Of a DNA stretch of 64,000 nt, positions 45,744 through 59,895 are shown piece after piece. A program made the translations under genes and the position numbers. The stretch lies in the sequence record PZ386955.1. One strand, given 5' to 3'. This DNA comes from a phage. The notes beneath the pieces were generated by a model. That model saw only the letters and a program-made list of their open reading frames with translations. It did no database searches and was not told the origin of the DNA. Position 1 is the stretch's first letter; every line of letters begins with the position of its first letter.

Positions 45744-45960
45744 TATTTTGAAAATTTTTACTTTTATAAAAAGGGGTGTGGGTTTCATGTACGGAAATCC
45801 ACCCTCTGAATAATATATCCAGAGTAAATATTATTCTGTACTCTGTTAATAAAGTATTTAATTTGTTTGTTGGACTATGGTATCTGATCTTTAAAAGGCA
45901 TACTATCTCTTAACTACTATTTATAACAGAACAGTAAAATCATTTTTATAAAAAGGACAA

Positions 45961-46160
45961 AATTATTTAAAGTTTTTACAGATTTTTGGATACAAATTTT
46001 GAAAATGAAAAGTTCAAGTTTGGTCAAAATTATTTAAAGTTTTTGTACGTATTTCTATCCAGATTTTGAAAATGAAAACTTCAATTTTTTAAAAATTCCC
46101 CAGTTTATTTAAAGTTTTTTTGCCTTTTTCCGTAGAAAAATCAAAAATGAAAAGTTCAAT
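45961..46160. repeat. three tandem ~65-75-bp direct repeats
   Basis: Each unit has ATTATTTAAAGTTTTT then TTTGAAAATGAAAAGTTCAA (internal TTGAA/TTCAA inverted repeat). Confidence 0.7.
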
Positions 46161-46183
46161 TTCGTGTTTTTATAGGTGTGTGT

Positions 46184-46198
46184 ATGATAATCATTCTC
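46184..46198. promoter_or_regulatory. Fur-box-like palindrome within palindromic cluster
   Basis: ATGATAATCATTCTC vs Fur consensus ATGATAATCATTATC; followed by TCATTCTCAGTAAGAGAATGA and GAGAATTTTTCTC palindromes to 46250. Confidence 0.4.
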
Positions 46199-46477
46199 AG
46201 TAAGAGAATGAGAATCGTTAGCAAATGAGAATTTTTCTCATTTAGAGAATAACGCGCAGGGGTGGTGTTTGTCTCGCGCTCCCGTGTCCCCTCGCCATAC
46301 AATAAGAATAGCATAACCAACAACAAAAGCAAGCGATTATTTCTATCTTTACATTTCTTTACAAATTTATTTTAGACGAGCTACCGGCGATCAACCTTCC
46401 AACCAGTAGTGCCCTGGTATGTTAGCCCCGCCTTTACGCCGTGGGGGTGGCGCTTCCTCTTCTGTATGTAAAACAGT

Positions 46478-46500
46478 ATAAGCCCGATCCCTGGGCTTGT
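46478..46500 (-). terminator. possible rho-independent terminator
   Basis: Hairpin AAGCCCAGGGATCGGGCTT downstream of minus-strand ORF. Confidence 0.4.
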
Positions 46501-46505
46501 CAAGA

Positions 46506-46772
46506 TTATTTTTTGTTTTCTTGCCAGGATAGGACACCTAACCAAAAATACATGTCGCCCCGCGCCCCTGGCGGGATCTTGCTTTCCCCGCCGCCACTGC
46601 AAGCCCATAGATAACCATTTGCGAACGTATCAAAATGATCTATCTCTTCCACCTTATGATCGCCCAGGTTGAGAACGGTTTCAACCTTTAAGCCCGTTGC
46701 GCTTGCTACCTGGTGCACCGTGCCGCCTTGCCAGCCCAATGAGTGCATAAGGTGTAAAGTAGTATTTGTCAT
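46506..46772 (-). CDS. hypothetical protein encoded in GC-rich island
   Basis: 88-aa ORF with AAGGG SD, own promoter and terminator; GC-rich codon usage. Confidence 0.4.
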   Translation of the reverse strand: MTNTTLHLMHSLGWQGGTVHQVASATGLKVETVLNLGDHKVEEIDHFDTFANGYLWACSGGGESKIPPGARGDMYFWLGVLSWQENKK

Positions 46773-46819
46773 GGTATCGCCCTTTCTTTGATGTGCGCCC
46801 TGGTTGGCGCGGTAGAAAG

Positions 46820-46848
46820 ATAATAGCCCTTTCCTTTATAGATAGCAA
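46820..46848 (-). promoter_or_regulatory. sigma70-type promoter (leftward)
   Basis: TTGCTA-N17-TATTAT on minus strand. Confidence 0.5.
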
Positions 46849-46883
46849 GCAAAAAAGAAATGAAAAAAGATTAAAAAAGGGGG

Positions 46884-46912
46884 TTGACGTTCCTCACCTG
46901 GTAGCGTATTAT
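46884..46912 (+). promoter_or_regulatory. sigma70-type promoter (rightward), divergent from previous
   Basis: TTGACG-N17-TATTAT; leader contains start-stop minicistron AAGGAGGGCGCA-ATG-TAG. Confidence 0.55.
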
Positions 46913-47039
46913 TCATCTTGTCGAGGGGGGCGAGGCACAACGACAATAAACAAAAGGAGGGCGCAATGTAGGACGGGCAAAGGTGAGGATCTCCATAATC
47001 CACCGTCACAATAACATTACTTATAAAAGGTTGATAACG

Positions 47040-47135
47040 ATGATCAAGAAAGAAAACAGCTTGACGGTTGGAACGATTAACGCTATCATTCTAGCCGTTC
47101 CATTTTGGATTGTAGTAGCGGTTATTATCTTTTAA
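47040..47135 (+). CDS. 31-aa hydrophobic peptide (type I toxin-like / small membrane protein)
   Basis: MIKKENSLTVGTINAIILAVPFWIVVAVIIF; SD AAAAGG; downstream of long leader. Confidence 0.3.
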   Translation: MIKKENSLTVGTINAIILAVPFWIVVAVIIF

Positions 47136-47143
47136 AAATATTC

Positions 47144-47201
47144 TTGACAACGTTTTTTAATCTGATAAGATGTATCACATAGGGCGGCAATAGTGCCGCT
47201 C
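47144..47201 (+). promoter_or_regulatory. early promoter + GC hairpin cassette
   Basis: TTGACA-N16-TAAGAT then GGGCGGCAATAGTGCCGC hairpin, ~25 nt before ATG. Confidence 0.6.
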
Positions 47202-56807: not shown

Positions 56808-57191
56808 ATGAGCAATATCATCAACCTGGCGGCTACTGTAAACGGTAAAGATTTTAACGGCGCTGTAGATCGTGATCCTATGTGGTGCTTATCAGTGTTT
56901 AAAGGCGATCTGGTTGAAGTTAGAACAACCGAAGGTTATAGCGACGATTATAAATGCGAGATTCATTTACACAACTGGTACACGGGTAAAACTTATGCGC
57001 TGAATCATGCGTTTATCGGGAAAATTGAATATCGCGAGATGATCGACGAGGAAACCGGGCAAGATTTTAGCGAAAACGTTTATATTCGTTCCGAGACATT
57101 AGCCGAACGTTTGATCGAGAAGATGAAAGCAAAAAATAAAATTAATTTAGCTCATTGGATTGATATAACAAACGATCCAGCTTATCAATAA
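56808..57191 (+). CDS. hypothetical protein
   Basis: Start at ATG 56808 (ACGAGGAA SD). Confidence 0.5.
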   Translation: MSNIINLAATVNGKDFNGAVDRDPMWCLSVFKGDLVEVRTTEGYSDDYKCEIHLHNWYTGKTYALNHAFIGKIEYREMIDEETGQDFSENVYIRSETLAERLIEKMKAKNKINLAHWIDITNDPAYQ

Positions 57192-57206: not shown

Positions 57207-57232
57207 AGGGCGCACAAAGCGCCCTTTCTTTT
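57207..57232 (+). terminator. rho-independent terminator
   Basis: Hairpin AGGGCGC(ACAA)AGCGCCCT + TTCTTTT. Confidence 0.7.
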
Positions 57233-57440
57233 ACCTCAATAAAGATGATAGCTTTTACCTATCAAAAACGTTCACCGAAAAAAGTGAATAGATCGCGGTA
57301 TCGAGCTAATCAAGGAGCAGATGAACAACCATACCATGAAGATCATAAGGCGCTTACAACGCGTTTTAGACCGCTTGTTTTTAATTTCTCCATGTAACTA
57401 TCTGGCAAAAACAGCCTTTTTCTTGTCTTTCCTCTTAAAT

Positions 57441-57456
57441 AATAATCATTCTCATT
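57441..57456. promoter_or_regulatory. Fur-box-like half-palindrome
   Basis: AATAATCATTCTCATT. Confidence 0.35.
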
Positions 57457-57492
57457 TGTAGCTGATTATTTATGCAATAAACTGAATAATGC

Positions 57493-57510
57493 AATAATGA
57501 TAATCATTCT
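57493..57510. promoter_or_regulatory. Fur-box-like palindrome
   Basis: AATAATGATAATCATTCT (16/19 to GATAATGATAATCATTATC). Confidence 0.45.
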
Positions 57511-58362
57511 TAACTTAAGACCATCTAACCTATAAAATAATAAGCTATCTAACTAAATTAAAGCTAATTATCTCACCTTTATTTATAACTTACTGTTACT
57601 ATCTCATTGATAACCTTATATTAAACAACAATAACTAATATAAATCATTACCAAGCTAAAGATAAGCTATCTAACCTTTAAAACTATAACTATAATCTAT
57701 CGAATTGTTGCACAAAGTAACTATTAAATTGTTAGTAACATTACTAAATAATTAATATCCTATCTATTTATGATCTAATCTTTACCTTCCTATCTATTAC
57801 CTAAATAATCATTTCATACAATAACTATAACAAGAAATATAATTCGCAAGCGTATCATTAGCAGCCTATGCCGGACACATAGGCGGCTAATAATAACGCA
57901 ACTACACACCCCACATAATAACCATCACCGATAGTTATTATTTGTGCTTATGTAGCTTGCAACAATTGCAAGCGCAACAATATACATGGTATATTGTATC
58001 CCTTACATTGTTGCGGTGCGTTATTATTAGCTAATGTTTAGAACATTGGCTATAATATAAGCTATCCAATAATAATAAGCTATACAATAATAAACATAGT
58101 GAATAATGACCCCCGATGATCATAATGCGCCACCTTCCAGGGGGCGCTATGTGAACACAAAGAAACCTTTCTTGTCAAGAAAAATATTGCCACTATTGCG
58201 CAAAATTATTTATATCTGAATAGATGATTTTTCATACTATTGCCCCCAATACTATCCCTATTTGTTGCCCTAACTATTGTCATTTGTTGAGCCTACTTTC
58301 TTAAAAGCGCAATAAATCAGAATTATCTTGATTTTTAGGGCGTTTTATAGTATAGAAAATAT

Positions 58363-58381
58363 GCAAATGATAATCATTATC
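58363..58381. promoter_or_regulatory. Fur-box-like palindrome
   Basis: GCAAATGATAATCATTATC: 16 contiguous identities to Fur consensus; just downstream of TTGATT...TATAGA promoter-like site. Confidence 0.5.
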
Positions 58382-58548
58382 AGCTATCTTCCACGGGTGG
58401 CACTATTTCACGCAGGATCATTTCATTTGGCAAGGTGTATATAGATGTTTAGACTTGCCAAGCCATTGATTTACTTAGAATTTATCTGTTTTGTTGTGAG
58501 TAGTACCTTTCTTGCTCAGAAAATAATCAAAAGTCTTATAAGTCATTG

Positions 58549-58579
58549 AATGATAATGCAAATGATAATTATTCTCATT
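58549..58579. promoter_or_regulatory. tandem Fur-box-like palindromes
   Basis: GAATGATAATGCAAATGATAATTATTCTCATT. Confidence 0.45.
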
Positions 58580-58950
58580 GATATTTGAGGGGGACGGTCG
58601 GCAGAAATCGGGGGGCGCTGAAAATCGCGTTAAGCACCTCTCGCAAGCGAGCAGTATTTTGCGGCAAGTTATTGATATTATTGACTTTACGCTTATGAAA
58701 AGGGGGTGTGTCGAAATAAATCGGGTATACCGGAAAAATTTTGTGGCATAGATATTTATTTGTCTATATTATGTACAAAGGGGTGTGTTAAAAATAATAG
58801 GTATATATAGAATAATTGATAGGGAATACCTATACTAATTCCTATACTAAATCCTTCATTAATGATGTTTCTATGGTGCTGTTCTTGTAATAGATGAAAA
58901 GACGCTGTATGATGTGTGGCATGAAACGTAAATTTATAAAGGAGTCTGAT

Positions 58951-59310
58951 ATGTGTGTTCCTATTAGCAGTCCACTGCTGTTAGAATTTTACAAAGCATG
59001 GATGGAAGATCATTCCTCAATGCATCGTGAGAATGTTGGTTTGTGTATTTGCCTTATGGATTATCTGGCAACCACTATGTCAAAGAAAAAACCTACGCAA
59101 GAAGATATAGAACATTTCAAGATGGTTCGCAGTAAAACGCTAGAAGAGATGAAATTGCAATTCACGTGTGCTGGGCTATCATCATTCCTGCCCTTTAATG
59201 ATGACCTTCTGTGTTATGAAGATGAAGGTAAGAAACATTCTTGCCATACTAACCCAGGGAGATTGCAGTGGGTGAAAGATCGTATTGCCGATTCATGTAA
59301 GGGTGTGTAG
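58951..59310 (+). CDS. Cys/His-rich small protein, paralogue family member 1
   Basis: Start at ATG 58951 (AAGGAG SD); blocks LL.FYKAW, GLC.CL.DY, QFTCAGL, PFN.D, CHTN, RLQWVKDRI shared with three other ORFs. Confidence 0.5.
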   Translation: MCVPISSPLLLEFYKAWMEDHSSMHRENVGLCICLMDYLATTMSKKKPTQEDIEHFKMVRSKTLEEMKLQFTCAGLSSFLPFNDDLLCYEDEGKKHSCHTNPGRLQWVKDRIADSCKGV

Positions 59311-59311
59311 A

Positions 59312-59467
59312 ATGTGGGAATTGGTTGGAATAGTTTGGTTAATGATAAAAGCAGGTTTTGTCGGTTTCGGACTTCTTATAATTTTGTGTATGTTCCTTAG
59401 TGCAATACAGGCATTCTTTTATCTGCTAGGTAGAATACTTAAGTTAGGAGGTGATCATGAAAAGTAA
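59312..59467 (+). CDS. small membrane protein
   Basis: 51 aa hydrophobic. Confidence 0.35.
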   Translation: MWELVGIVWLMIKAGFVGFGLLIILCMFLSAIQAFFYLLGRILKLGGDHEK

Positions 59468-59825
59468 TATTCCGTTGAGTAGTGCAGCTTTAATACGATT
59501 CTATAAAGCATGGATTGCCAACCATCCGGCAATGAATCGCACAACGAGTGGCTTGTGTGGTTGTCTGGTAGATTATGTAGATGATTTTGTTGGTGAGGTA
59601 ACTAGAGAAGAAGATAAAAGATGGCGTGATCGTTTGTTGGATAGTTTGAAATACGAAATGAGGAAACAATTTACATGTGCAGGACTGGACTACAATCTTC
59701 CGTTCAATGCAGATTGCATGGATTACCTTTCAGAGTGTATAGACTTGGCGTGTCATACCAACACGTTACGTCTTCAATGGGTGAAAGACAGAATCGAAGA
59801 TGCAAATAATGCTTGCATTGAATAG
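59457..59825 (+). CDS. Cys/His-rich small protein, paralogue family member 2
   Basis: AGGAGG SD 5 nt before ATG 59457; LIRFYKAW...GLCGCLVDY...QFTCAGL...CHTNTLRLQWVKDRIED. Confidence 0.5.
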   Translation: MKSNIPLSSAALIRFYKAWIANHPAMNRTTSGLCGCLVDYVDDFVGEVTREEDKRWRDRLLDSLKYEMRKQFTCAGLDYNLPFNADCMDYLSECIDLACHTNTLRLQWVKDRIEDANNACIE

Positions 59826-59895
59826 AAATGTCTGTACACTGTGTTCCATAAGATATGCAATATCGCGCATAACAAACTACTAATGAGAGGTGTAA

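Follow-up and report, generated by a model that had tools for sequence, protein, structure and literature searches.

In the packaging model for phage T7, the short terminal repeat is duplicated for every genome that is packaged. This duplication has been proposed to proceed through a hairpin intermediate (Chung, Nardone and Hinkle 1990, as cited in PMC11482910). Terminal repeats have also been recorded for phi92 and related phages. The RefSeq entry of phi92 (NC_023693) carries two features, DTR-L and DTR-R, which are 343 bp each and identical to one another. For phage BME3, PhageTerm analysis by its authors gave a repeat of 342 bp (PMC12210895). For phage Schickermooser, which belongs to another genus, the repeat reported by the authors is 328 bp (PMC6563267), and the deposited record has an exact terminal redundancy of 329 nt. 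Here, we describe the equivalent locus, a non-coding region at positions 57233–58893 of a 64,000-nt stretch of phage DNA (record PZ386955.1; this whole stretch is hereafter the window), together with the boundary motifs, the structured element and the Fur-box-like sites found in it.

In our reading, the region holds both physical genome ends of a phi92-like (Justusliebigvirus) virulent myophage, joined as a concatemer junction, and we put the probability of this reading at about 80%. Its main parts are as follows.

57233–58289: right-end unique DNA.
58242–58289 (no strand assigned): array of (C)TATTTGTTG with a variable number of copies, the last of which directly abuts the left boundary of the repeat.
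58290–58632 (no strand assigned): direct terminal repeat, one copy of 343 bp, placed by homology to the phi92 repeats.
58605–58652 (no strand assigned): core of the right boundary and candidate terminase recognition site, 99% identical within the genus.
58633–58950 (plus strand): left-end leader.

The phi92 repeats map to 58290–58632 at 97.7% identity, and their flanks align on either side. The left genome end falls at 58290 (TGTTG^AGCC, the caret marking the boundary) and the right end at 58632 (CGCGTTA^AGCAC). The two ends of the BME3 record coincide with these boundaries to within one base, and the record of phage VEcB opens at the equivalent left end. Given this homology to ends mapped in relatives, the window therefore shows the form of a concatemer junction, with right-end unique DNA, one repeat, and the left-end leader in succession; a single copy of the repeat is seen because the assembly collapsed the two. 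The repeats of phi92, BME3, and Schickermooser correspond to the same element, as indicated by the 97.7% identity to phi92 over 343 bp, the shared flanking genes, and the shared boundary sequences. A first-pass annotation of the window, made from the sequence alone, had offered a packaging signal as one of several functions for the region, and the presence of both the direct terminal repeat and the two genome ends of phi92-like phages supports that suggestion.

The existence and length of the repeat are already known from the phi92 annotation and from the reports on BME3 and Schickermooser. In the records and literature searched, four features appear to be undescribed, namely the boundary motif shared among clades, the junction element with its covariation, the operators resembling Fur boxes, and the right-boundary copy in bacterial islands. 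The phi92, BME3, and Schickermooser records that were opened, and the paper passages that cover these phages, annotate or mention the repeat only.

Both boundaries of the repeat, in both genera, have the sequence GTTR^AGC. The left boundary is TGTTG^AGCC in the window and TGTTG^AGCA in Schickermooser, and the right boundary is CGCGTTA^AGCAC in both; the interior of the repeat is ~70% identical between the genera, with the boundary sequences kept. In a pattern search of all fetched relatives, the right motif, AAAAT(T)CGCGTTA^AGCAC, was invariant in every clade. The left motif, TGTT(G/A)^AGC, was also found in every clade, 321–412 nt upstream of the right boundary, a distance that corresponds to the predicted repeat length, and the structured element described below was found in every clade 598–724 nt upstream of the same point. 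The least conserved part of the region lies just left of the left boundary (57% column identity), and across 11 genomes of Justusliebigvirus the TATTTGTTG array there ranges from about one copy to six. In other clades, a small hairpin takes the place of the array. Its stem differs by clade (e.g., ATCGCGTAGCGAT, AACCCTGATAAGGGTT, and TACCGCATAGCGGTA), and in each clade it is followed by ATGTTG^AGC.

On this reading, the virion DNA is a linear molecule that starts at 58290 and ends at 58632, with the 343-bp segment present at both ends. By analogy with short-repeat phages of the T7 type, replication would generate head-to-tail concatemers with one repeat per junction. The terminase would then recognise the conserved site across the right boundary and cut or nick the DNA at the two GTTR^AGC boundaries, and the repeat would be duplicated in the manner proposed for T7, leaving two copies in each packaged genome. 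We infer that the right boundary is the main terminase recognition site, and that the GTTR^AGC sequences are the two cuts. The locus resembles the T7 junction in that a short exact terminal repeat, with one copy per junction, has arrays of short repeats beside it and palindromes on its left, and in that three promoter-like units in tandem lead into the genes of the left end. Unlike T7, however, the phage is a myophage of 146 kb, the two junctions share no sequence homology, and the palindromes form a covarying four-way junction instead of a single hairpin. PhageMaP data for phage Bas63 were set aside as irrelevant, since Bas63 is a Felix O1-like phage.

A copy of the right boundary is present in the chromosomes of many Escherichia coli strains. 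Of 5426 complete E. coli genomes, 411 (~8%) contain a match to the segment 58605–58652, at 92–96% identity and with a shared core of 46 nt; all of these matches are chromosomal and none is annotated. Strains M8 and 2014C-3061 are two examples of island carriers. The similarity reaches ~78 nt, beginning at TGATATTTGGGG. We examined the surrounding islands in three genomes. They are ~13 kb long where both ends are visible, and two of the three adjoin tRNA genes (leuX and thrW). Pooled together, the three islands encode an integrase, a Dit-like tail protein, a 609-aa tape-measure-like protein, a capsid protein, and an O-like replication initiator, besides ~2 kb of non-coding DNA that is rich in iterons; none of the three shows a terminase gene. 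The Dit-like protein is 58–61% identical to Justusliebigvirus proteins. The tape-measure-like protein matched 134 phage records at 31–37% identity, all from this phage group among the matches listed, and the tallies of organisms and hosts for these matches are likewise those of this group. When 2.9 kb of non-coding island DNA was compared with phages, it matched at the right-boundary site only, and the structured element and the Fur-like boxes are absent from the islands. The island proteins have no homologue in the 64-kb window because the tail genes of the phage lie outside it. The boundary site, the Dit-like protein, and the tape-measure-like protein thus provide three independent links between the islands and the phage group.

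Packaging sites of helper phages are known to be mimicked by satellites, as exemplified by P4 with the cos site of P2 and by cos-type and pac-type phage-inducible chromosomal islands. The simplest reading of the E. coli islands is that they may be satellite-like elements carrying a copied packaging site of their helper, which would in turn support a role for the right boundary in terminase recognition. Like P4 and the phage-inducible chromosomal islands, they are integrase-bearing islands of ~13 kb found by tRNA genes, with their own initiator and iterons, no visible terminase gene, and a near-exact terminal site of the helper type. They differ in their putative helper, which would be a virulent myophage whose terminal repeat is short, and in carrying homologues of the Dit-like and tape-measure proteins of the phage as well as a capsid protein. 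This gene set is not one that we recognise from either P4-like elements or phage-inducible chromosomal islands, even those that form capsids, and we know of no E. coli satellite with such a virulent myophage as helper. A literature search for satellites of this phage group found no paper.

A search with a 20-mer of the right boundary against species-representative genomes gave only two real matches, both in island-type contigs binned in metagenome-assembled genomes, and one chance match. In strain M8 of E. coli, the shared site is followed by a hydrophobic open reading frame (ORF) of 24 aa, which was considered as a possible small toxin and rejected because other islands have lost the start codon.

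The best-conserved block of the region between genera (~80% identity) is a structured element that lies ~260 bp inside the right-end unique DNA. It can be divided as follows.

57856–58031 (no strand assigned): structured element of ~176 nt, present as a single copy in the window, supported by covariation and fold z-scores.
57864–57884: hairpin H1, with a near-invariant CCGGACA loop.
57886–57900 with 58017–58031: outer stem of 15 bp.
57902–57955, 57956–57972, and 57973–58015: arms P2, P3, and P4, all inside the outer stem.

Some of these palindromes had been noticed in the first-pass annotation, namely the hairpin GCCTATG-CCGGACA-CATAGGC, and the inverted repeat in which CGCAACAAT (57973–57981) pairs with ATTGTTGCG (58007–58015) around ATATAC-ATG-GTATAT. 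Both are present, and every motif that it named was found in place or a few bases away. It had missed the outer stem, which is perfect over its 15 bp and encloses the smaller palindromes. The ATATAC-ATG-GTATAT palindrome itself proved to be a genus-specific insertion within arm P4.

Against shuffled sequences, a 191-nt stretch containing the element gave fold z-scores of −5.8 as plus-strand RNA, −8.7 as minus-strand RNA, and −7.6 as DNA. Covariation was assessed with RNAalifold on an alignment of 19 distinct versions, which had been gathered from metagenomes and viral contigs as well as from phage records. Standard pairs occupy 89% of cells, compared with 24–44% when the partners are slid, and changes on both sides occur in 15 of 54 pairs, compared with 9.2 ± 1.3 in shuffles, none of which (0 of 500) reached 15. 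Swaps of the G-C to C-G type are found in the hairpin and the outer stem, the CCGGACA loop is altered in just one of the 19 versions, and a CTTACA loop is kept in 16. Selection therefore acts on the base pairing of the element and not on its sequence, and since this pairing is maintained by compensatory changes, it is functional in a single-stranded form. A closing helix of CATTAGC with GCTAATG around the element was excluded from the pair count because it occurs in this genus only. A search of Rfam 15 at the gathering threshold, and with E-values up to 5, returned no family match, and one chance snoRNA match (E = 0.86) fell elsewhere; a tRNA and tmRNA search of the region found none.

A long structured non-coding RNA had been among the functions first suggested for the region. 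The structured part of that suggestion stands, given the strong covariation, but the element is ~176 nt and not 1.6 kb long, and it could act as single-stranded or extruded DNA. In a narrower form, 57856–58031 would be a gene for a small structured RNA of ~175 nt, read from either strand, that lies next to the genome end by chance and is not a DNA-level signal for end processing; this would leave the terminus reading of the rest of the region intact. A long-range 15-bp stem with three arms and compensatory changes is typical of RNA and would be hard to extrude from duplex DNA, and the near-invariance of the two loops is also in keeping with an RNA. All 19 versions are ~20 kcal/mol more stable as minus-strand RNA, and A-C cells, which would be G-U wobbles on the minus strand, outnumber G-T cells by 13 to 5. 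The minus strand is G+T-rich and would fold better anyway, however, so the strand preference is weak evidence. A perfect TATAAT on the plus strand lies just upstream of the element at 57838–57843 (another, at 58050–58055, lies just after it), but the upstream copy is not conserved outside the genus; no terminator is found 3′ of the element on either strand, and Rfam holds no matching family. The distance between element and repeat is also fixed in every clade, which suggests a function tied to the genome end. On this balance, we consider the free-standing small RNA gene a serious contender whose chances are a little short of even. The most likely role of the element is that of a cis-acting feature of the genome end or of a small RNA.

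Sites resembling the operator of the E. coli iron regulator Fur are found both in the terminal repeat and in the right-end DNA.

57435–57453 (14 of 19 positions) and 57493–57511 (16 of 19), no strand assigned: two Fur-box-like sites.
58361–58397 (plus strand): promoter-like unit with a perfect Fur 7-1-7 operator, TGATAATCATTATCA; repeat family D1.
58556–58592 (plus strand): second copy of this promoter-like unit, 69 nt short of the right boundary; after its operator, TGATAATTATTCTCA (58563–58577), come TGATATT and GAGGGGG.

The 19-bp E. coli Fur consensus (GATAATGATAATCATTATC) is matched at 17 of 19 positions at 58363–58381 and at 16 of 19 at 57493–57511. Two sites with at least 16 matches were thus seen, as against 0.04 expected in the window, and 1000 shuffles of the region alone gave 0.012 such sites and none with 17 matches. 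The perfect 7-1-7 operator (motif TGATAATnATTATCA) occupies 58368–58382. Relative to the right boundary, the box of the second unit lies at −69 to −73 in Justusliebigvirus, in Phapecoctavirus, and in a metagenomic clade, despite the divergence of the surrounding repeat, and a box at this position occurs in most of the clades sampled, though not in all. The sites within 57435–57511 are conserved in three clades as boxes of the TGATAAC-C-ATTATCA type. As in Fur-repressed promoters, the boxes are placed across the spacers of promoter-like units; they differ from E. coli Fur boxes in lying in the terminal repeat of a virulent phage and not at an iron-uptake gene. Fur may thus bind the sites.

The same AATGATAATCATT-type sites could instead be bound by a phage repressor or be plain promoter elements, in which case their likeness to Fur boxes would be a coincidence among AT-rich palindromes. 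Three of the four sites have the variant CATTCTC where the Fur consensus has CATTATC, although the hexamer variants GAGAAT and GATAAT are usual in authentic Fur boxes. Another cluster, of three adjacent Fur-box-like sites including an exact ATGATAATCATTCTC, lies at 46184–46245 in a second gene-free stretch, as would be expected of a phage-wide operator. On the other side, one site is a perfect 15-bp Fur 7-1-7 operator with 17 of 19 matches to the longer consensus, and the enrichment survives shuffling of the region alone. The sites also persist among phages recorded from Escherichia, Klebsiella, and Citrobacter, genera that have a common Fur specificity. A literature search found no report of Fur control or Fur boxes in this phage group, which fits a phage repressor; the only phage-borne Fur box that it returned lies upstream of the sitABCD iron/manganese transporter operon of temperate lambda phages (PMC6969025). 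We regard a phage repressor or a chance resemblance as plausible but on balance the less probable account, and we favour Fur as the putative ligand.

The remaining parts of the region, and the terminator that precedes it, are the following.

57207–57225 (plus strand): intrinsic terminator with a 7-bp stem, of which six pairs are G-C, followed by a T run.
57233–57434 (no strand assigned): conserved non-coding block with small hairpins, which aligns across three clades and is 94–99.8% identical within the genus.
57521–57855 (plus strand): G-poor, AT-rich block with 5.4% G and 23% G+C (77% A+T), carrying the TAAGCTATCTAAC and CCTATCTATT repeats.
58052–58093 (no strand assigned): 18-nt tandem repeat ATAATAATAAGCTATACA in 2.4 copies, with a copy number that varies among relatives.
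58672–58724 and 58743–58801 (plus strand): two promoter-like units of the leader, each followed by A(A)GGGG(G)TGTGT; repeat family D2.
58825–58855: 12-nt tandem repeat in the leader.

The terminator closes the last right-end gene (56808–57191), a homologue of phi92 gp248, and phages Paula and ASO2A have an equivalent annotated terminator. On its two sides, the region is bordered by the homologues of this last gene and of the first left-end gene of phi92, and it occupies a gene-free span of ~1.7 kb that runs from the terminator to the first downstream gene, with a probable start ATG at 58951 and the ribosome-binding site AAGGAG, at which the leader ends. The region itself is non-coding and AT-rich, as first described. 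It holds no ORF of 60 aa or more, the longest being 57 aa (58578–58751, TTG start) and 50 aa (57245–57397), and its G+C content is 32.5% compared with 37.8% in the window. A 46-aa ORF at 57321–57461, which has a good ribosome-binding site and is an annotated protein in several records, was rejected as a conserved gene because neither Phapecoctavirus nor the metagenomic clade has its ATG or its ribosome-binding site.

The two units of the leader and the one near the end of the repeat make three tandem rightward promoter-like units. At the left end of T7, early host promoters likewise stand in tandem and point rightward, and by this analogy the units of the repeat and leader may serve as promoters for the small left-end genes. 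The A(A)GGGG(G)TGTGT motif recurs once more in the window, at 45770. A scan of the region for terminators gave counts no higher than in shuffles.

The recurring motifs first noted in the region are present in the G-poor block, with TAAGCTATCTAAC exact at 57541 and 57663, and CCTATCTATT exact at 57759 and 57789. A further copy of TAAGCTATCTAAC with two mismatches lies at 58058, and the window holds seven matches to it where 2.3 are expected. At 335 nt, the block at 57521–57855 contains the most G-poor 300 nt of the window, and relatives keep its composition but not its sequence; within the genus, identity falls to 79% at the 18-nt tandem repeat (58052–58093). The palindromic element is kept across genera, but the short repeats are not, and the arrays vary in copy number.

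A replication origin had also been suggested, either in the region as a whole or in its AT-rich, G-poor half (57435–58031), where the short repeats would be initiator sites, the AT-rich DNA an unwinding element, and the hairpins a priming signal. The window has its lowest G+C content and strongest strand asymmetry here, 13-mers and 18-mers are repeated, and a conserved multi-hairpin element recalls single-strand initiation signals. However, no DnaA box (TTWTNCACA) occurs within 57233–58893, no replication-initiator gene is adjacent, and the short repeats are not conserved between genera, where composition alone is kept. An equally plausible candidate is available in the non-coding DNA at 45744–47200. 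With nothing in positive support of it, we consider an origin here unlikely. Another suggestion was a DNA-injection signal, for which the sequence gave no support. In its T5-style form, DNA entry would be paused after a first segment, and the composition and the dense repeats and palindromes of the region are reminiscent of such a stop signal. In T5, though, the signal lies within a repeat of ~10 kb (10,219 bp), whereas the repeat here is 343 bp and holds no gene, let alone a pre-early gene block. A T5-like first-step-transfer region was rejected once the phage proved to be phi92-like, and we consider this reading very improbable.

The second gene-free stretch, 45744–47200, has two copies of a 67-nt tandem unit (45958–46088), a G+C-rich part (46240–46640), and a TATAAAAAGGGGTGTG motif at 45765, and is 97–98% conserved within the genus; it had no match in Rfam. 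It may be an origin or a second regulatory hub.

Several observations weigh against the terminus interpretation or parts of it. The boundaries were transferred from relatives at 97.7% identity, and the window itself has one copy of the repeat. The BME3 repeat ends one base earlier (342 vs 343 bp), so the exact cut positions and the chemistry of the ends are uncertain. Matches of the sigma-70 type in the region are at background level (19 vs 15.3 ± 3.4 in shuffles), and the promoter assignments therefore derive from repeat structure and position. No conserved promoter or terminator was found to flank the structured element on either strand. Finally, the E. coli islands do not have the element, which, if they are packaged by phages, argues against its being needed for packaging recognition.

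The attribution to this phage group is based on 48 phage records that hold at least 80% of the region at 92–95% identity. All those examined among them belong to Justusliebigvirus, the phi92-like myophages of ~146 kb. In Phapecoctavirus and in Citrobacter phage Tr1, the equivalent place is taken by a gap that is likewise free of genes and about as long, with only short blocks of sequence in common. Next to the terminus, gene content differs among relatives, as follows from the alignment with phi92, in which phi92 1–556 aligns to 58290–58843 and phi92 566–641 to 59775–59850. The window thus has ~0.9 kb of additional DNA relative to phi92 (58844–59774) directly after the left-end leader.

Two sets of records deserve comment. 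Four entries named 'Campylobacter phage' (MG065639, MG065645, MG065656, and MG065689; host Campylobacter jejuni) are 93% identical to Justusliebigvirus across the region, and their host label or sample is probably wrong. In the BME3 record (PP239276.1), the annotated 'DTR-L' is shifted by 72 nt, the sequence has N bases, and one end joins the equivalent of window position ~58705 directly to that of ~57869. These oddities look like an artefact of assembly or editing.

Beyond the terminus itself, a wider proposal can be put forward tentatively, and we rate it somewhat below an even chance. The 46 to 78 nt of the right boundary would be a captured, portable packaging signal, and the E. coli islands would be satellites of virulent phi92-like and phAPEC8-like myophages. 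Fur would gate the promoters of the repeat, and the junction element would assist end processing as a new cofactor that acts in cis, either as RNA or as DNA. Should the islands indeed be mobilised, therapeutic phages of the phi92 type could spread them among chromosomes, and interference of the islands with these phages might follow. Should the Fur-like sites be real, the iron status of the host would be read by a virulent phage at its first promoters.

For the phage group as a whole, the terminus has a practical use. Many deposited genomes begin at an arbitrary position, and in several of them as many as nine spurious small proteins are annotated in this region; once recognised, a terminus with a simple boundary motif would allow such records to be oriented and annotated consistently. 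The right-boundary core and the covarying element also offer mutable targets for studying how large short-repeat myophages recognise and cut their DNA, and knowledge of packaging matters for the engineering of broad-host-range therapeutic phages.

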